DNA of 64,000 bases from Berkelbacteria bacterium GW2011_GWE1_39_12 (lineage in GTDB: Bacteria > Patescibacteriota > UBA1384 > UBA12157), in NCBI GenBank assembly GCA_001029735.1, contig CP011213.1, positions 848,298-912,297 of the forward strand, given 5' to 3'. A model generated the notes under the pieces. It did not search any database. It was given only the letters and a program-made list of their open reading frames with translations, and was not told where the DNA came from. Shown piece by piece: positions 19,353-63,058 of the stretch (the stretch's first letter is position 1; the number at the start of each line of letters is the position of its first letter). The translations under genes were made by a program, and so were the position numbers.

Positions 19353-20966
19353 TTACTCCAATCTATTCAGCAGCGAATGTCCTGTCATTTGCGCTGGTTT
19401 AGGTATTTCTAAAAGTTGTAAAATTGTCGGCGCGATATCTGCTAAACTGTCGGTTGCTGAAATAATTTTGCTCAAAGCATTTGGTCCATACGAAAGCGAT
19501 GTTCTGATTAAATCTTTTTTTGCGTCATTTTTTACCATAATAAACGGCACAGGATTTAACGTGTGCATTGTCTCCCTCTCTCCAACATCACTTTGATTTA
19601 TATTAACCATTTGTTCCGCATTACCATGATCTGCTGTAATAATGGTCACCCCGCCAACCGATCTATTTGCTTTCACAATCTGACCTACTTGTTCATCCAA
19701 AGACTGGACTGCTTGACCAACTGCAATGATATTCCCTGTATGAGCAATCATGTCTACATTAGCAAAATTCAACACAATTAAGTCATATTTTCTTGATTTG
19801 ATAGCCGAAAGTGTCGCCGAAGTAATTTGTCTCGAAGACATTTCTGGCTTTAAATCATACGAAGCAACCTTTGGCGACGAAATTATCTTCCTTTCTTCAC
19901 CAGGATAAGCTTCTTCTTGACCACCATTTAAAAAGTAGGTAACATGGGCCATTTTTTCTGATTCAGCAATTTTTAACTGTTTGCCATTACTTTTTGAGAC
20001 AACTTCAGAAAGATTATTGGCGTAAATTTCATCTGGAAAAGCAACTTTAGCCGGCAGATCTTTTTGATAATTTGTAAAACCGCAGAAATATAAATTTTCA
20101 ACTTTTTTTGGTCTAAAGAAAAAAGTTTTAAATTTAGAATCAAGAAAAACTTTTGCCAATTGGCGAGCGCGATCCTCTCTAAAGTTAAAGAAAATAACAG
20201 CATCACCAGCTTTGATAGGATTAATTTTTCCGTCTTTATCTTTGATAAGCGTCGGCTCGATATATTCGTCTGTTAAATTATTCCTATAGCTCTCAGAAAT
20301 CGCGCTTTCAATTTTATCGGAAATTTTACCATTTCCTTCAGTTAGGGCAAGATAATATTTTTTAATTTTATCCCAGTTCTCATCTCGGTCCATGGCGGTA
20401 TTTCTTCCGCAAACACTGCCAAATTGACCAATCTTAACGTCATCCATTTTTACGCGAATTTTTTCAATAAAATTCAAAGCCTGGGTTGGTCCAGTATCAG
20501 TTCCGTCAGTAATTGCATCAATAAATACCCGGTCAAAATCTTGTCGGTGAGCCATTTCGAGTAAAGCGAGTAAATGCGAGATATCGGAATGCACGCCACC
20601 GTTAGAAATCATACCGATCAAGTGAACATTGCTATTATTTTGTTTTGCCCAAGCAAATGCTCCAGCTAATTGCTGGTTTTTGTAAAATGTTCGCCCAATT
20701 ATTTCTTGATTAATACGAGTATGAGGACTTTTAACAGACCGTCCAGCGCCAATCATTAAATGGCCCAAGCGCGACTCGCCGACGACATTGCCATATTCGA
20801 TTGCCCCAAGTGCTTGCAGAATCTTGTGGGGATAATTGCGCCAAAGATTATCAATATTTTTCGGATTATTCATGACTAAAGCATTACCACCCCAAGAAGG
20901 TGATAAGCCCCAACCATCTAATATCATTAAAACTACAGGTCTATTCTTCTGCATTTGCCCCTCCAA
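19353..20966 (-). CDS. gpmI: 2,3-bisphosphoglycerate-independent phosphoglycerate mutase paralog 1 (most divergent)
   Basis: ...LMILDGWGLSP..., ...GESRLGHLMIGAGR..., ...ITADHGNAEQM..., ...DMIAHTG... iPGM/alkaline-phosphatase-superfamily motifs. Confidence 0.85.
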   Translation of the reverse strand: MEGQMQKNRPVVLMILDGWGLSPSWGGNALVMNNPKNIDNLWRNYPHKILQALGAIEYGNVVGESRLGHLMIGAGRSVKSPHTRINQEIIGRTFYKNQQLAGAFAWAKQNNSNVHLIGMISNGGVHSDISHLLALLEMAHRQDFDRVFIDAITDGTDTGPTQALNFIEKIRVKMDDVKIGQFGSVCGRNTAMDRDENWDKIKKYYLALTEGNGKISDKIESAISESYRNNLTDEYIEPTLIKDKDGKINPIKAGDAVIFFNFREDRARQLAKVFLDSKFKTFFFRPKKVENLYFCGFTNYQKDLPAKVAFPDEIYANNLSEVVSKSNGKQLKIAESEKMAHVTYFLNGGQEEAYPGEERKIISSPKVASYDLKPEMSSRQITSATLSAIKSRKYDLIVLNFANVDMIAHTGNIIAVGQAVQSLDEQVGQIVKANRSVGGVTIITADHGNAEQMVNINQSDVGERETMHTLNPVPFIMVKNDAKKDLIRTSLSYGPNALSKIISATDSLADIAPTILQLLEIPKPAQMTGHSLLNRLE

Positions 20967-20971
20967 CCAAT

Positions 20972-22525
20972 TTAACTAATCAGACTTTCCCCAGTCATTT
21001 CCATCGGTTTTTGCAAATCCATAATTTGCAATACTGTTGGTGCAATATCGGAAAGTTTCAACGTTTGATCACCAACTGCTTGTCTTAGTGGTCTTTGAAA
21101 ATTCGGGTCTTTAGAAATCATCATAAACGGCACTGGGCTAGCAGTATGCTCGGTGTAATTTTCACCCGTATTTGGATTCAGCATCTGTTCCGCATTGCCA
21201 TGATCAGCCGTAATTAATAAGACAACATCTTTATCGATACTTCTACTTACTATTTTACCAATAAGTTCGTCTAATTTCTCGCAAGCCCTTATTGCAGCTT
21301 TGATATTTCCAGTATGTCCAACCATATCGGCGTTCGCAAAATTACAGACTATAAAATCATATTTTCCAATTGCCCCCATGACTTTGTCAGCTACGTCATC
21401 TGCTGCCATCTCTGGCTTAAGATCGAAAGTTGCCACTTTTGGCGAATGTACCAAAATACGATCTTCTCCTGGAAAAGGAGCTTCACGACTACCATTAAAA
21501 AAGAAAGTAACATGGGCGTATTTTTCAGTTTCTGCAATATGAAGTTGCTTTAATCCCGCATCTGAAATCACTTTGGCCAAAGGATTATTGATATCATGGC
21601 GATGGAAAACCGGTTTTACTAGATTACCATCTGCATATTCGTCCAAGTAGGCGAAAGAGGCAAAGTAAATATTTTGCAATTTCTTCTTTCGATCAAAGCC
21701 TTTAAAATTATGAGTAACCAAGCTTTCCGTTAATTCTCTGGTTCGTTCTGCTCTAAAATTGAAAAATATTATAGAATCGTTGTCAGCGATCGGAACAAAA
21801 GGACTTTCCGGCTTATTAATCGCCGTTGGCAAAATAAACTCATCGGTTTTATTCTGTCTATAATTTTCAGAAATAGCTTTTTGAACGCTCAATGATTGTG
21901 GACCGATCCCTTGAGTTAAGATATCATATGATTTTTGAATTCTATCCCAATGTTTATCTCTATCCATCGCCCAATAACGCCCAGAGACAGATTCTACTTT
22001 ACCAATACCAATTTCCTTAATTTTATCTTCTAGTTCCGATAAGTAAGATAGGGCTTTCATCGGATCAGTATCTCTGCCGTCAGTAATCATATGAATGTAA
22101 GCATTTTGCACTTGTTGTTTTTTTGCCATTTCCAATAAAGCATAGAGGTGATCAATGTGCGAGTGGATCCCGCCGTCAGAAACCAACCCGATCAAATGCA
22201 AATTGGATTGATTTTGTTTAACTTGAGTAAAAGCACCAAGTAAAACTTCGTTGCTGAAAAAAGATCCATCGTTAATTGCAGTAGTAATGCCCGGCAGATT
22301 TTGAAAAACAATTTGGCCACTACCGATGTTTAAATGACCGACCTCTGAATTTCCGTTTTCATGCCTTGGCAAACCAACTGATTCTTCGGCTGCTTTTAAT
22401 GCGGTATGAGGATACTTACGCCAAATTTCATCTAATAACGGTGTTTCGGACATTTCGATTGCATTGCCACCCCATGCCGGCGCCAAGCCCCAACCATCCA
22501 AAATCACCAATACAACTTTTTTCAT
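20972..22525 (-). CDS. gpmI: 2,3-bisphosphoglycerate-independent phosphoglycerate mutase paralog 2
   Basis: ...VILDGWGLAP..., ...NGNSEVGHLNIGSG..., ...ITADHGNAEQM..., ...DMVGHTG... Confidence 0.9.
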   Translation of the reverse strand: MKKVVLVILDGWGLAPAWGGNAIEMSETPLLDEIWRKYPHTALKAAEESVGLPRHENGNSEVGHLNIGSGQIVFQNLPGITTAINDGSFFSNEVLLGAFTQVKQNQSNLHLIGLVSDGGIHSHIDHLYALLEMAKKQQVQNAYIHMITDGRDTDPMKALSYLSELEDKIKEIGIGKVESVSGRYWAMDRDKHWDRIQKSYDILTQGIGPQSLSVQKAISENYRQNKTDEFILPTAINKPESPFVPIADNDSIIFFNFRAERTRELTESLVTHNFKGFDRKKKLQNIYFASFAYLDEYADGNLVKPVFHRHDINNPLAKVISDAGLKQLHIAETEKYAHVTFFFNGSREAPFPGEDRILVHSPKVATFDLKPEMAADDVADKVMGAIGKYDFIVCNFANADMVGHTGNIKAAIRACEKLDELIGKIVSRSIDKDVVLLITADHGNAEQMLNPNTGENYTEHTASPVPFMMISKDPNFQRPLRQAVGDQTLKLSDIAPTVLQIMDLQKPMEMTGESLIS

Positions 22526-22556
22526 TATCTAGTATTCCTTTGTTTAATTAGAATTA

Positions 22557-24098
22557 TTATATTACTTGACTTAAATCCTGTCCTGTTACTATTTCTGGCT
22601 GATTTAAGCCCAAGCGATTAATTACAGTTGCAGTCACATCGGCCAGAACCCCAATTGGTTCTGTTGTAGCACTGGCTAATTTGGTATCCAAATTAACAGT
22701 CACAGGCCTTTGATTAATTTTTTCCTGAAAACAAAGCAATAAAGGAACAGGATTAATTGTATGTTCCTTGTCAACTTCGCCGGTTTGTAAATTGATCATC
22801 TGCTCGGCATTGCCATGATCGGCTGTCACCAACAAGTCACCACCAGCATTCAAAACCGCTTGAGCTAATTTACCCAAACAATTATCAACTTTTGCCACTG
22901 CTTTTTGCGTTGCCGCCAAAATACCTGTATGGCCAACCATATCAGCATTAGCAAAGTTTAAAACAGTAAAATTTGGTTTATTTTTCTGGAAATATTCGAT
23001 AAATTTAGCGGTTAATTCATCGGCCGACATTTCTGGCTTTAAATCGTAAGTAGCAACTTTTGGCGATGGCACCACAATCCGCTCTTCACCGGCAAACGGA
23101 GCTTCCCAGCCACCATTAAAGAAATAGGTAACATGGGCGTATTTTTCTGTTTCAGCAATATGCAATTGAGTTAATTTAGCACTACTTAAAACCATTGCCA
23201 ACTGGTCCGTAACTTTATCAGCTAAAAAGGCAACTTTAACTAGCGGCGTTGGTTCGTGACCATAACTGGTAAATGACGCAAAATAAATTTCTGGAATATT
23301 TATTAGTTCATCAGAAATTTGTCTAGCCCTATCCGAACGAAAATTATAAAAGATGACAGCATCTTTTGACTTTATTCTGGCAGTATTACCGATTTTAGTG
23401 GGCTCGATAAATTCATCAGTTTTTCCGGCGGCATAGGAATCATTGATTGCTTTTTCTATCGTTTCAGCAGTCGGCGAGCTATCTGATGTTAAAATATTGA
23501 ATGCTTTTCGAGTACGTTCAACGCGTTTATCACGATCCATACCATAAAAACGGCCCATGACCGAGGCAATTTTGCCTACTCCGGTTTGAGTAATTTTTGC
23601 TTGGAGTTTTGGCAAATCACTTAAAATGGTTTTTGGAGCGGTGTCACGGCCATCGGTTATTACATGGATATAAACCTCGGTAAAATTTTGCAATTTTGCC
23701 AAATCAATTAAAGCCAATAAATGGTTAATATGCGCATGTACTCCACCCGAAGAACAAAGACCCAAAAGGTGGACTTTGGTGTTATTCTGCTTGGCATAAT
23801 TAAATGCGTCAACTAATTCCTTATTAACAAAAAAGGTTTTATCGGCAATGCTTTTATCAATTCGAGGTAAATCTTGCATAACAACACGACCGGTGCCTAG
23901 ATTTAAATGGCCAACTTCAGAATTTCCCATTTCGCCCCACTCCAAACCAACTTCTTCACCAGAAGCATGAAGGCTAGTACTAGGAAACATCGATAGTAAT
24001 TTATCATAATTTGGCGTCGGCGTTGAAAAAACGGCGTTTCCTTTTGTCTCCACGCTCAGACCCCAACCATCTAATATTGCTAAAACTAAAGGCCTCAA
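22557..24098 (-). CDS. gpmI: 2,3-bisphosphoglycerate-independent phosphoglycerate mutase paralog 3
   Basis: ...AILDGWGLS..., ...MGNSEVGHLNLGTGR..., ...VTADHGNAEQM..., ...DMVGHTG... Confidence 0.9.
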   Translation of the reverse strand: MRPLVLAILDGWGLSVETKGNAVFSTPTPNYDKLLSMFPSTSLHASGEEVGLEWGEMGNSEVGHLNLGTGRVVMQDLPRIDKSIADKTFFVNKELVDAFNYAKQNNTKVHLLGLCSSGGVHAHINHLLALIDLAKLQNFTEVYIHVITDGRDTAPKTILSDLPKLQAKITQTGVGKIASVMGRFYGMDRDKRVERTRKAFNILTSDSSPTAETIEKAINDSYAAGKTDEFIEPTKIGNTARIKSKDAVIFYNFRSDRARQISDELINIPEIYFASFTSYGHEPTPLVKVAFLADKVTDQLAMVLSSAKLTQLHIAETEKYAHVTYFFNGGWEAPFAGEERIVVPSPKVATYDLKPEMSADELTAKFIEYFQKNKPNFTVLNFANADMVGHTGILAATQKAVAKVDNCLGKLAQAVLNAGGDLLVTADHGNAEQMINLQTGEVDKEHTINPVPLLLCFQEKINQRPVTVNLDTKLASATTEPIGVLADVTATVINRLGLNQPEIVTGQDLSQVI

Positions 24099-48776: not shown

Positions 48777-49519
48777 CCATATTCCACCTCGTAGGTGGAA
48801 TATGGTTCAGCCTGCATAATCTTCGATAATTATTTTTCTAATAATGGATAGATTTTTTTGGTAGGATTTTCGATCATTAACAAATTCTTGATACTGCTTT
48901 GGCGTGAAATCAAACAACCCATCAAAAGAACATAATTGAAGGTTTGATTGCCCTAAATATTCTTGATAGGACGAAAAGTCCCAATCTTGAGGTTTTTTAA
49001 CCAAACCAGCTGATGTTGGATTGAGATGAATATAACGACTTAAATGCAGAAGCTGCTCATCTGATTTAACTAGAACGCTTTTAAACCTACCTGCCCATAA
49101 GGGCCCGGTTCTCTTAAATTTAATATTGTGATAACGAGTATAGCAATTAAGTGTTTTCGCCATAAAATTCGAGATTCCTTTGTCGGTAATTTGCTTCAAA
49201 ATTAAATGAATATGAGTTGGCATAAGACAATAGGCAATTATCTGCACGTCTACTTGACCAGACTTCTTCATCTCATTAATTATTGCGGCTTGTAATTTTT
49301 TATCTAAGTTTAAAAATCTCGAATATTTAAAATTAAAATTATTAAAGCGATATAGATCCAAGATGTTGATTAACCGATTAAAATCTTGAGCATTGTTAAA
49401 AATGACATATTTGGCGATGCTCCGACTATAAACATGATATACCGAGCCTGACACCAATGGTTCTTTTCTGTACTGCATAATATCACTATACCATATTCCA
49501 CCTACGAGGTGGAATATGG
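48777..49519. mobile_element. REP-associated tyrosine transposase (RAYT) unit: tnpA-REP flanked by two inverted 29-bp palindromic REP hairpins (CCATATTCCACCT-CGTA-GGTGGAATATGG at 48777-48805; reverse complement at 49491-49519)
   Basis: Flanking hairpins are exact reverse complements of each other and bracket the Y1-transposase gene. Confidence 0.7.
48807..49478 (-). CDS. REP-associated tyrosine transposase (IS200/IS605-like Y1 HUH transposase)
   Basis: ...YHVYSRSI...IIAYCLMPTHIHLIL... HUH motif and ...LSRYIHLNP... catalytic Tyr region; 223 aa. Confidence 0.8.
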   Translation of the reverse strand: MQYRKEPLVSGSVYHVYSRSIAKYVIFNNAQDFNRLINILDLYRFNNFNFKYSRFLNLDKKLQAAIINEMKKSGQVDVQIIAYCLMPTHIHLILKQITDKGISNFMAKTLNCYTRYHNIKFKRTGPLWAGRFKSVLVKSDEQLLHLSRYIHLNPTSAGLVKKPQDWDFSSYQEYLGQSNLQLCSFDGLFDFTPKQYQEFVNDRKSYQKNLSIIRKIIIEDYAG

Positions 49520-49866: not shown

Positions 49867-49953
49867 AGCGCACCCTCTTTCTTATCAACATTCGGCTGTA
49901 TAGTATTACTTTTCACCCATAAAGTCAATATATCTAATGTAAGTTATCCACAA

Positions 49954-49982
49954 TTGACATTCGTTTTTTGTTCGCTTAGAGT
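49954..49982 (+). promoter_or_regulatory. lexA promoter (TTGACA-17-TAGAGT) with candidate SOS operator TTCGTTTTTTGTTCG (49960-49974) filling the spacer
   Basis: The same 15-nt motif (1 mismatch) fills the spacer of the dinB-operon promoter at 55623-55637. Confidence 0.55.
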
Positions 49983-50001
49983 AAATATATACAAACAAAA
50001 A

Positions 50002-50046
50002 GCGAAAAGGAGACCAATAGAAAAGAATACTTTTCGCGGAAATTTC
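50002..50046 (+). promoter_or_regulatory. lexA 5' UTR hairpin (GCGAAAAG-20 nt-CTTTTCGC) + GGAAATTTC element
   Basis: Same hairpin-GCGGAA(A)TT architecture as upstream of leuS, rpmF and porA. Confidence 0.4.
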
Positions 50047-50057
50047 AAGGAGAAATT

Positions 50058-50654
50058 ATGGAACCACTAACAAAACGCCAAAAAGAAATCTATGACTTTA
50101 TCGAACAATATATCGCATCTCACGATTACGCCCCCTCCTATCGTGAGATTGCGGAATTTTTCAATCTTTCTTCCGTCGCCACGGTGTCAGATCACATCGA
50201 GAATTTGAAGGAAAAGGATTATCTCAAAAAGGACTTTAACGAAGCCCGATCCTTGCAACTGACACCGCGTTTCGACGAGCGAACATTCACCATTCCGTTG
50301 CTCGGCGCCATTGCTGCCGGCATGCCGATCGAAGCAATTCGTACCAACGAGACGATTGATATCCCTAAAGATATGATGGGTAAAAACGTTTTTGCTCTGA
50401 AAGTAAGAGGGGACTCAATGATTGACGATGGTATTTTTGACGGCGATTATATTGTCATTGAACAAACTAACAGCCCTCATGATGGCGAAATAGTCGTCGC
50501 CTTAATCGAAAACGAAATGGCCACGCTAAAAAGATTTTACCGCGAAAAAGATTGTATTCGTTTGCAACCAGCCAATTCAAATTACAACCCAATTAGAACT
50601 AATAAAGTTACTATCCAAGGTCGGGTAAAAGGGGTCATTAGAAAGTTTAGCTAA
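50058..50654 (+). CDS. lexA: LexA repressor
   Basis: N-terminal wHTH (...LTKRQKEIYDFIEQYI...), Ala-Gly cleavage region, S24 peptidase ...VRGDSMID... and Lys (...TLKRFY...). Confidence 0.9.
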   Translation: MEPLTKRQKEIYDFIEQYIASHDYAPSYREIAEFFNLSSVATVSDHIENLKEKDYLKKDFNEARSLQLTPRFDERTFTIPLLGAIAAGMPIEAIRTNETIDIPKDMMGKNVFALKVRGDSMIDDGIFDGDYIVIEQTNSPHDGEIVVALIENEMATLKRFYREKDCIRLQPANSNYNPIRTNKVTIQGRVKGVIRKFS

Positions 50655-50672: not shown

Positions 50673-50840
50673 ATGCTCTTAGAAACAGTCTCTAACTTAA
50701 TTTGGACCGGAGGTATGAATTTACCCGATGTGGCTTTAATCGTCGAAGATTGCTGCGATCCGATGGTTTTAGATACTTATAAAAAGGAGGAATGTGGAAA
50801 CGAAAATTCAAGTCATTTTAATCTTGCTCATCTTTAATAT
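50673..50840 (+). CDS. possible small ORF (55 aa) downstream of lexA, overlapping the next gene start
   Basis: AAAGGAGGGAAG then ATG; MLLETVSNLIWTGGMNLPDVALIVEDCCDPMVLDTYKKEECGNENSSHFNLAHL. Coding status uncertain. Confidence 0.25.
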
Positions 50841-51147
50841 TTTCTTTATTGTCCTTTGGCGGACGAACAAAAACCGCTACAACGATCTCGCTTTTCGCAA
50901 GCAATCTCTCTCGTCCCGCTACGGGAAAATGACCGAACAGTTTATGCCATTTTTAAAAGACTACCCATATGATCCATGTAACTTTCGTTTTCTAGGTTCG
51001 CCAATTGACGGTGTGCAATTTGAAGAGGATAAAGTCATTTTTATTGAGTTCAAAACAGCTAATTCTAAAATGAGCGACAAACAAAGAAATATCGCCGATC
51101 TCATCTACAGAAAAAAGATAGATTTTGAAGAACACCGGATTGATTGA
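50794..51147 (+). CDS. hypothetical membrane-anchored protein with PD-(D/E)xK-like motif (IDGVQFEEDKVIFIEFK)
   Basis: N-terminal TM helix; the D...E.K spacing suggests a restriction-endonuclease-like fold. Pattern-based. Confidence 0.4.
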   Translation: METKIQVILILLIFNIFFIVLWRTNKNRYNDLAFRKQSLSSRYGKMTEQFMPFLKDYPYDPCNFRFLGSPIDGVQFEEDKVIFIEFKTANSKMSDKQRNIADLIYRKKIDFEEHRID

Positions 51148-55577: not shown

Positions 55578-55602
55578 GCCACCCTAACAGGTGGCCCTTT
55601 TT
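55578..55602 (+). terminator. intrinsic terminator after the RNB gene (GCCACC-ctaacag-GGTGGC + T5)
   Basis: Perfect 6-bp stem and U-run. Confidence 0.65.
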
Positions 55603-55616
55603 ATTTATTAAAATTA

Positions 55617-55645
55617 TTGCTTTTCGCTTTTTGTTCGGCTAATAT
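55617..55645 (+). promoter_or_regulatory. promoter (TTGCTT-17-TAATAT) of small-ORF-dinB operon with candidate SOS operator TTCGCTTTTTGTTCG (55623-55637) in the spacer
   Basis: Same architecture as the lexA promoter. Confidence 0.5.
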
Positions 55646-55651
55646 TTAATT

Positions 55652-55873
55652 ATGGAACAAATAAAAGTTTTAGCCAAATTTAATCTAGATAAAATCGAAA
55701 TAGCCGCTTTTAGTCGAGCGGGGCGGTCTTATAAAATAACTCGTCAAAACTTCGTTCATCATTTCCGCGAAGGCGACCGAACGATTTTTATTTTCCATGT
55801 TTCCGACGAAGCCAATACTTATCAACTACGTTTCGAGCCAGAAACATTAAAGTGGTTTTTGGTAGAGGACTAA
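55652..55873 (+). CDS. hypothetical small protein (73 aa) co-oriented and adjacent (7-nt gap) upstream of dinB
   Basis: ORF with good periodicity; possible Y-family polymerase accessory (UmuD/YolD-like role is speculative). Confidence 0.45.
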   Translation: MEQIKVLAKFNLDKIEIAAFSRAGRSYKITRQNFVHHFREGDRTIFIFHVSDEANTYQLRFEPETLKWFLVED

Positions 55874-62483: not shown

Positions 62484-63058
62484 GCCTAATGATAACCACC
62501 GGCGAATGCCGGTGGTATCTATCCTGCCCGCTGATCGCGGGCGAGGTTACAACAGGACTGGTTGAGCTGATTGCTGTTTGTCTTGGTTTTGAATGTATTT
62601 TCTGATTGCTATTTCACTGATGCCGATAGTGGAAACAAAGTATCCACGACTCCAAAAGGTTCCTAAGGGAATCTTTTTGTTTTTCTTTTTGATCCAAGCG
62701 GATGATTTACCTTTCAGAATGCTCATGGCGTAGCTAACAGAGTATTTAGGAGGAATAGAAATATAGATATGAATATGGTCATCGGCAATATGGATTTCGT
62801 AAATCACAAGTCCTTTCCATTTGGCGATCATCTTGAAGATACGTTCAAATTCTTGTTTAATATAGGTAGAACACATGACTCTACCGCGATACTTTGGTGA
62901 CCAGACCAAGTGGTATCGACAACAGTATAACGCATGATTTAGTTGGTACAATCGAGAATTAGACAATAAAATCACCTCCTTCCTTCGTCGGGGTGATTTT
63001 ATTGTAACGCGATGCTTTAAAACGCACACGCCAGCTAAAGCTGGCGGATTTTCCTTTA
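62484..63058. mobile_element. IS200/IS605-family insertion sequence (tnpA only) with subterminal hairpins (ACCACCGGC-gaat-GCCGGTGGT, GCCCGC-tgat-GCGGGC at left; CGCCAGC-taa-GCTGGCG at right) and an RBS-sequestering hairpin
   Basis: TnpA Y1 transposase flanked by imperfect palindromes. AAAATCACC...GGTGATTTT stem (62970-63002) covers the GGAGG of tnpA. Confidence 0.55.
62547..62966 (-). CDS. tnpA: IS200/IS605 family transposase TnpA (Y1 HUH)
   Basis: ...YHLVWSPKYRGRV..., ...DDHIHIYISIPPKYSVS... (HuH), ...RGYFVSTIG... (catalytic Tyr). TTG start 8 nt after GGAGG preferred over the upstream GTG. Confidence 0.75.
   Translation of the reverse strand: MSNSRLYQLNHALYCCRYHLVWSPKYRGRVMCSTYIKQEFERIFKMIAKWKGLVIYEIHIADDHIHIYISIPPKYSVSYAMSILKGKSSAWIKKKNKKIPLGTFWSRGYFVSTIGISEIAIRKYIQNQDKQQSAQPVLL

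Follow-up and report, generated by a model that had tools for sequence, protein, structure and literature searches.

A candidate direct-repeat LexA operator in the lexA and dinB promoters of Berkelbacteria

In the genome of Berkelbacteria bacterium GW2011_GWE1_39_12 a sequence of 15 nucleotides recurs in two promoters, one upstream of lexA and the other upstream of an operon that contains an ORF of 73 amino acids (the small ORF) and dinB, the gene for DNA polymerase IV (Pol IV). This raises the question whether the 15-mer is the site at which the LexA protein encoded at this locus acts. We analyzed a stretch of 64 kb of this AT-rich genome (39% GC; contig CP011213.1, positions 848,298 to 912,297), hereafter called the window; positions are those of the window unless a locus handle such as L026 precedes them. 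A preliminary description had given the lexA promoter as TTGACA, TTCGTTTTTTGTTCGCT (49960-49976) and TAGAGT and the second promoter as TTGCTT, TTCGCTTTTTGTTCGGC (55623-55639) and TAATAT, with 15-mers identical at 14 of 15 positions. When re-read from the sequence, all of this proved correct. Both reported copies are real, but the window holds three: a site on the minus strand at lexA had been overlooked. We call the sites A (spacer of the lexA promoter), B (the minus-strand site) and C (spacer of the small-ORF/dinB promoter) and list all features in Table 1. The evidence makes it very probable that the LexA encoded at 50058-50654 uses the 15-mer as its operator (SOS box).

The closest LexA proteins in the genome collection come from metagenome-assembled genomes (MAGs) of Candidatus Berkelbacteria, with 77-78% identity. 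A metagenome scan gave 22 further lexA loci, whose LexA is 65-89% identical to that of the window, and these comprise 18 non-redundant promoters. Anchored on the motif, the orthologous promoters take the form TTGACA-(A/G)TTCGnnTTTTGTTCG-nn-TAAGAT-like: the -35 element, site A and the -10 element are kept in the 18 promoters, the flanks and the upstream sequence differ, and the length of the lexA leader ranges from 39 to 226 nt. Past site A, at a distance of 14-25 bp (mostly 17), an inverted second site follows in 17 of the 18 promoters. In the window this is site B, situated between the -10 element and the lexA ribosome-binding site. The lexA promoter itself is the best sigma70-like match of the region (10 of 12 positions, 17-nt spacer) and lies 76 nt upstream of the 198-aa ORF.

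A search of the window for the 15-mer with up to two mismatches gave 3 matches where 1.05 are expected. This is an excess of only about threefold, and since the motif is T-rich and the genome AT-rich, it would fit a chance similarity of T-rich stretches or an element intrinsic to promoters, in either case devoid of repressor function. From 35 sites in the 18 orthologous lexA promoters we built a 19-nt matrix, the window being left out. The matrix carries 21 bits of information and has the consensus nnTTCGntTTTTGTTCGnn; GTTCG in the second repeat and the C in the first TTC are invariant. The best matches in the window are site A with 29.0 bits, site C with 24.1 bits, scored by a matrix that had no dinB promoter in its training set, and site B with 20.2 bits, while the next match in the 64 kb reaches 11.1 bits. 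In random 64-kb sequences from a first-order Markov model 0.07 matches of at least 20 bits are expected, against the three seen here. This confirms that the motif recurs in the window far above chance. Moreover, it is the C and G in TTCG and GTTCG that are invariant and not the T-run, the motif is kept in genomes of 24-68% GC (see below), and site B lies past the -10 element on the opposite strand, so that it is no spacer element. The explanation by chance or by a promoter-intrinsic element is effectively refuted.

The fetched loci were then scanned with the matrix at a threshold of 14 bits. All sites of at least 20 bits outside the lexA promoters of the Berkelbacteria-type loci precede homologues of the 73-aa ORF and dinB: they score 28.1 bits in L026 and L027, 28.0 in L037, 24.9 in L083 and 26.1 in L084. 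In each of these five genomes the box lies between -35 and -10, and in each the gene upstream is a different one. The placement in the spacer of both promoters, as the preliminary description had it, is kept in five small-ORF/dinB promoters and at lexA in over 20 orthologous promoters, and comparative footprinting in related genomes, which it had suggested as a check, agrees: the box is kept at lexA and at the dinB operon and the flanks diverge. An unbiased count of shared 8-mers put TTTGTTCG at the top, present in 89% of the lexA and 100% of the dinB-operon upstream regions. Other matches of at least 14 bits have 16.5-17.3 bits and lie within the lexA coding sequence, about 400 nt into it (GGTTCGCTGTTTGTTCGAT, minus strand; L036:4400-4418, L039:4400-4418, L040:855-873, L047:2310-2328). 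The equivalent position in the window never exceeds 8 bits, and these intragenic matches are probably a coincidence of the coding sequence.

The unit of the motif is TTCG-N6-GTTCG, a direct repeat with a period of 11 bp (matrix positions 3-6 and 14-17) and a conserved T-rich spacer. The motif had been stated to differ from the Gram-positive and E. coli boxes, and neither the Gram-positive pattern GAAC-N4-GTTC nor the E. coli pattern CTGT-N8-ACAG occurs anywhere in the window. The assignment to the direct-repeat type also stands: besides the 11-bp period, 15 of the 35 orthologous sites are exact matches to GTTC-N7-GTTC. As a search pattern for the window, the strict alphaproteobacterial GTTC-N7-GTTC was rejected; it misses all three sites and has one unrelated match, which is at chance level.

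The 15-mer need not itself be the functional unit. Sites A and B are inverted with respect to each other, their centers are 32 bp or about three helical turns apart, and the pair occurs in 17 of 18 lexA promoters, so together they could form one large palindromic operator (TTCG-N7-TTCG, N17, CGAA-N7-CGAA) for a higher-order complex. We regard this as very improbable. The gap between A and B varies from 14 to 25 bp, and a single unit is found in all five dinB-operon promoters, in the lexA promoters of L044 and L046 and in most of the relatives outside Berkelbacteria. Since a single unit suffices there, the direct repeat is the functional unit; the pairing of A and B at lexA may add cooperativity.

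The lexA gene was recognized by PF01726 and PF00717 as well as by TIGR00498 (195.2 bits, cutoff 110.95), in agreement with its first naming. The protein has an N-terminal winged-helix DNA-binding domain (PF01726, E 6.2e-18, residues 1-64) and a C-terminal S24 peptidase domain (PF00717, E 1.2e-33). A87-G88, S120 and K158 align with Brucella LexA, and the AAG cleavage site, GDSM and TLKR are retained. Judged by this alignment the catalytic apparatus is intact, and because LexA keeps Ala87-Gly88, Ser120 and Lys158, induction by RecA-stimulated self-cleavage is to be expected.

We extended the comparison beyond Berkelbacteria. LexA proteins 44-54% identical to that of the window were found in Myxococcota, Binatia, CSSED10-310 and unclassified MAGs (9 loci, 24-68% GC). 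In these loci TTCG-N7-TTCG is located within about 100 bp upstream of lexA, as the only or nearly the only copy within some 12 kb. In those loci that are AT-rich it again lies in the promoter spacer. Firmicutes and Actinobacteria LexAs in the same data set go with GAAC-N4-GTTC. The LexA of Paceibacterota, Nomurabacteria and Saccharibacteria has 221 aa and is 30-32% identical to that of the window; the lexA promoters of these typical Patescibacteria (L019-L022, L070-L074) read TTGCAC-[CTTGAAA-N4-TTTCAAG]-TAYAAT, followed downstream by TTTGAAAG-N3-TTTGAAAG with a period of 11 bp. One half-site is there used both inverted and in tandem. The type of motif thus co-varies with the type of LexA: the direct repeat accompanies LexAs 44-89% identical to that of the window, and the Cheo box or the TTGAAA motif (in tandem TTGAAA-N5-TTGAAA) is found in the other clades. 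Bootstrap support is 99.5% for the Berkelbacteria LexA clade and 100% for the typical Patescibacteria LexA clade. The neighbor-joining topology groups the direct-repeat LexAs; support for this deep grouping, including that with the alphaproteobacterial LexA, is at most 22%, and we therefore make no claim of a common origin of the tandem-binding LexAs. As the deep nodes are weakly supported, the argument for co-evolution is based on the correlation of motif and identity and not on a robust tree.

Two loci combine LexA with another enzyme. In L006:6001-7518 and L060:4001-5584 a single ORF encodes a full-length LexA (winged helix-turn-helix and S24 peptidase) joined to a DNA methyltransferase. 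The fusion of L006 contains an N6/N4 methyltransferase, and a TaqI-family endonuclease gene runs convergently towards it; that of L060 contains a C5 methyltransferase and adjoins a Vsr endonuclease. The two fusions are independent, and TTCG-N7-TTCG lies in the spacer of each fusion's own promoter. Such a protein may serve restriction-modification systems as a controller that can be cleaved upon damage.

These observations bear on the possibility that the 15-mer is the operator of another DNA-binding protein which co-regulates lexA and dinB. A direct repeat is atypical for the symmetric LexA dimer, and a DnaA box at the lexA promoter (see below) indicates that probably at least one other factor acts there. 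The motif, however, tracks the LexA type in phyla that are unrelated and differ in GC content, and also at the promoters of the LexA-methyltransferase fusions, and different LexA clades carry different motifs at the same promoter position. Autoregulation of lexA together with control of dinB is the classic signature of LexA, and LexA boxes of the direct-repeat type are an established feature of Alphaproteobacteria (PMC8565304, PMC3323433), which we also saw at Brucella lexA. A different protein is therefore improbable. Some points do weigh against LexA. Besides the geometry of the repeat just mentioned, only two operons speak for a regulon, since no recA, uvr (uvrA) or ruv (ruvAB) genes are present in the window or the fetched loci; the -35 element of the dinB-operon promoter in the window is weak (3 of 6 positions); the deep LexA phylogeny is weak, with 22% bootstrap for the direct-repeat clade; and LexA binding to the sites, repression with the ensuing expression response, RecA dependence and the transcription start sites are what we infer from sequence.

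If LexA is the acting protein, the arrangement of the sites suggests how control would be exerted. With operator A in the spacer of the lexA promoter, binding of LexA and of RNA polymerase would be mutually exclusive, and LexA on A and B would block both polymerase binding and promoter escape, resulting in autoregulation of lexA. At the given distance of about 32 bp between the centers, two dimers could be placed on one face of the DNA. The single unit in the spacer of the putatively leaderless small-ORF/dinB promoter would put this operon under LexA control as well. Upon DNA damage RecA-ssDNA filaments would trigger self-cleavage of LexA between Ala87 and Gly88 by the Ser120/Lys158 dyad. Both promoters would then be freed, and LexA, Pol IV, the small beta protein and possibly a nuclease would be induced.

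Table 1. Features of the lexA and small-ORF/dinB loci in the window. Operators are candidates.
Feature	Position	Strand	Remarks
DnaA box TTATCCACA	49944-49952	+	perfect; directly upstream of the lexA -35; associated element outside the LexA operator
lexA -35 TTGACA	49954-49959	+	conserved in orthologues
LexA operator A	49960-49974	+	TTCGTTTTTTGTTCG; occupies the lexA -35/-10 spacer; same place in 18/18 non-redundant orthologous promoters
lexA -10 TAGAGT	49977-49982	+	aligns with TAAGAT/TATGAT/TATTAT of orthologues
LexA operator B	49992-50006	-	TTCGCTTTTTGTTTG; orientation opposite to that of A, from which it lies 17 bp downstream; covers about +3 to +17 of the predicted RNA
lexA, 198 aa	50058-50654	+	Pfam and NCBIfam; predicted cleavage Ala87-Gly88, Ser120, Lys158
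PF10107 nuclease gene	50794-51147	+	membrane-anchored, archaeal Holliday-junction-resolvase-like; Pfam
Terminator-like hairpin and T-run	55578-55595	+	ends the upstream RNB-domain RNase gene, setting it apart from the dinB operon
-35-like TTGCTT	55617-55622	+	weak; small-ORF/dinB promoter
LexA operator C	55623-55637	+	TTCGCTTTTTGTTCG; small-ORF/dinB promoter spacer
-10 TAATAT	55640-55645	+	exactly 6 nt separate its end from the small-ORF ATG
73-aa ORF	55652-55873	+	first gene of the operon; small all-beta protein, distant DUF6504-like family member
dinB (DNA polymerase IV), 402 aa	55881-57089	+	begins 7 nt past the small-ORF stop

The nuclease gene follows lexA directly in 16 of 17 informative Berkelbacteria-type loci, and in the window no terminator-like site was found on the plus strand between the two genes. 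It may be co-transcribed with lexA and hence be a third LexA-controlled gene. On the other side, an IS200-like Y1 transposase-family ORF (PF01797) is located on the minus strand at 48807-49478, which is some 500 bp upstream of the region of the lexA promoter; a further one lies at 62547-63029 on the same strand.

The promoter of the second operon matches 7 of 12 sigma70 positions in the window and is therefore weak. At the position of its -35 element the orthologues have TTGACA (L026), TTGCTT (L083, L084) or TTGCAT (L037), and L026 has a perfect promoter, TTGACA-17-TATAAT, in which the box is placed as in the window. The gap of 6 nt between the -10 element and the ATG of the small ORF is also present in L026, L083 and L084, and for these and for the window a leaderless mRNA is predicted. 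The operon of L037 differs in having a leader with a GAGGAG ribosome-binding site. The identity of dinB, assumed from the start, was borne out by its IMS domains and by NF002677 (284 bits, cutoff 256).

The protein encoded by the 73-aa ORF is conserved in four close homologues, and a hypothetical protein with 100% identity to it is encoded in a Candidatus Berkelbacteria assembly. Its AlphaFold2 model (predicted local distance difference test score 92.7) is a seven-stranded all-beta domain. An exhaustive search with a hidden Markov model found at least 226 representatives of the family, mostly of about 82 aa. Ten of 60 family members match PF20114 (DUF6504) weakly (E<=0.01), and a score above the gathering threshold is reached by one, P0134 (25.1 versus 24.2 bits); the window protein has no match to PF20114 even at E 10. 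The profile matches thus point to a distant relation to the uncharacterized DUF6504 only. No relative of the family was found in the PDB by sequence or by Foldseek, and a literature search found no mention of DUF6504. Elsewhere members are encoded after lexA (L087, L092) or before a Y-family polymerase gene (L087, L091), and in L086 one is preceded by a consensus promoter that contains the same LexA box (26.8 bits). The ORFs are located at L026:5737-5955, L083:1986-2204, L084:717-938, L086:329-577, L087:3001-3249, L091:175-423 and L092:307-588. The protein may be an unrecognized partner of Pol IV.

Small accessory genes are known to precede Y-family polymerase genes, e.g. those of YolD-like proteins, or umuD with umuC. 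The window likewise has a small gene directly before a putatively LexA-controlled polymerase gene, to which it is probably translationally coupled; the 73-aa protein, however, has no sequence match to the YolD or UmuD families in profile searches. A larger arrangement is found at L087:2084-5258 (57% GC, not CPR-looking, i.e. unlike the candidate phyla radiation): a divergent recQ is followed by lexA, an 80-aa Cys-rich ORF, the DUF6504-like ORF, a bAvd/23S_rRNA_IVP ORF and a 510-aa Y-family polymerase. Its lexA is apparently leaderless with GTTC-N7-GTTC at its start. This cluster is an extended version of the regulon of the window.

The DnaA box next to the lexA -35 element is the single exact copy in the window. 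Within 105 bp upstream of operator A an exact DnaA box is present in 13 of the 18 non-redundant orthologous loci; in 164.6 kb there are only 16 exact boxes in total, 13 of them at lexA. Position and orientation vary among the loci. Besides the window, the observation covers L001, L002, L026, L028-L031, L033, L035, L036, L041, L042, L060 and L070. It suggests an input of DnaA into lexA transcription. Ahead of the typical Patescibacteria lexA promoters the DnaA-box-like sequences TGTTAATAAC and TGTGGATAAC were observed. An origin of replication at the DnaA box of lexA was considered and rejected, as the box is solitary and the skew shows no inflection.

In some relatives the operators are separated from the start of lexA by a GC-rich insert of 150-200 nt, absent from the window (L001:1431-1595, L002:5838-6000, L037:2147-2294, L039/L040:3824-4000). 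It is predicted to adopt a very stable multi-branch fold with a long closing stem (z-scores -5.7 and -3.1). Covariation among the four sequences is weak, and a search of these GC-rich leaders against Rfam gave no match. The insert could be a structured RNA of the 5'-untranslated region or a small mobile element. Apart from the lexA and dinB loci, the window contains on the minus strand (19353-24098) three tandem paralogous ORFs of 513-537 aa. They are alike at their N-termini (…VLxILDGWGL…), show a resemblance to cofactor-independent phosphoglycerate mutase and adjoin an enolase-like gene; such a triplication is unusual for so small a genome.

The analysis provides a concrete candidate for the operator of an SOS repressor in an uncultivated, genome-reduced lineage of the candidate phyla radiation (CPR), which accordingly holds at least two unrelated pairs of LexA and operator. 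The apparently tiny regulon (lexA, possibly the nuclease, the small protein and Pol IV) fits the idea of translesion synthesis as the core of the SOS response. With its half-site (GTTCG) and recognition helix resembling those of Gram-positive bacteria and a tandem geometry resembling that of Alphaproteobacteria, the clade is useful for the question of how LexA motifs change, and it offers a direct approach to how a symmetric dimer can recognize a tandem site. A wider reading, which we put forward as a speculation and hold to be rather doubtful as a whole, is that TTCG-N6-GTTCG marks an unrecognized LexA subfamily of several phyla (Berkelbacteria, Myxococcota, Binatia, CSSED10-310 and others), in which a Gram-positive-like recognition helix is kept and the likewise Gram-positive-like half-sites are bound in tandem. 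This would be a living link from the Cheo palindrome to the alphaproteobacterial repeat, with a new DUF6504-like Pol IV partner in the minimal regulon, an input from DnaA and a recruitment of LexA to restriction-modification methyltransferases.

Among known systems the alphaproteobacterial LexA box, the direct repeat GTTC-N7-GTTC, comes nearest and shares with the box of the window the tandem arrangement, the 11-bp period and the TTC core. Upstream of Brucella lexA we find GAAC-N7-GAAC, seen as GAACAAGACTGGAAC, and the related LexA of L087 (49% identical to that of the window) has GTTCTATTTTTGTTC. The same GTTC-N7-GTTC also occurs in Acidobacterium, acquired by lateral transfer. In the Berkelbacteria-type sites, however, the 3' repeat is GTTC in 34 of 35 cases and the 5' repeat has the G in only 15 of 35; it is optional there, and all three sites of the window have A or T instead. 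The best-conserved tetramer is TTCG, in which a G follows TTC on the 3' side as it does in the Gram-positive half-site CGAAC, and the T-rich spacer belongs to the motif. The proteins differ as well: the window LexA has 198 aa compared to 240 aa for the alphaproteobacterial type, is without the long linker and shows 34% identity to Brucella LexA, and its recognition helix reads SSVATVSDH whereas alphaproteobacterial LexA has SKSGIHRL. From these sequence features the box would work like the alphaproteobacterial one, and the LexA of the window appears to stand outside the alphaproteobacterial LexA lineage.

To the Gram-positive Cheo box CGAAC-N4-GTTCG the relation is the reverse. Here the half-site GTTCG is identical, the helix LSSVATVSDH of the window LexA is nearer to that of the Cheo-box LexAs (L[AS]SSSTVHGH) than to the alphaproteobacterial one, and the identity to Firmicutes LexA (40-44%) is above that to alphaproteobacterial LexA. 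The arrangement is different: the half-sites of the window are in tandem with 11 bp between their starts, those of the Cheo box are inverted with a 4-bp spacer.

For Patescibacteria a LexA motif (Sanchez-Osuna, Barbe & Erill 2017, Environ Microbiol 19:3465) is cited in PMC7739468 as a case in which LexA came to recognize direct repeats. In view of this citation, the suggestion of the preliminary description that the box is undescribed for its lineage is unproven; a broad literature search for CPR and LexA found nothing useful. The 2017 motif shares with our case the superphylum and an SOS network centered on lexA and translesion synthesis. The typical Patescibacteria LexA of 221 aa, in contrast, belongs to a separate clade and goes with another half-site (TTGAAA-N4-TTTCAA) in a parallel promoter layout. 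A direct repeat of Balneolaeota LexA, TTACACATATTTTWTACATA, is described in PMC7739468 as independently reported and as controlling lexA, recA and translesion polymerases; half-site and lineage of the window are unrelated to it. The box of the window is thus a further example of the known direct-repeat LexA sites and not a new kind of system.

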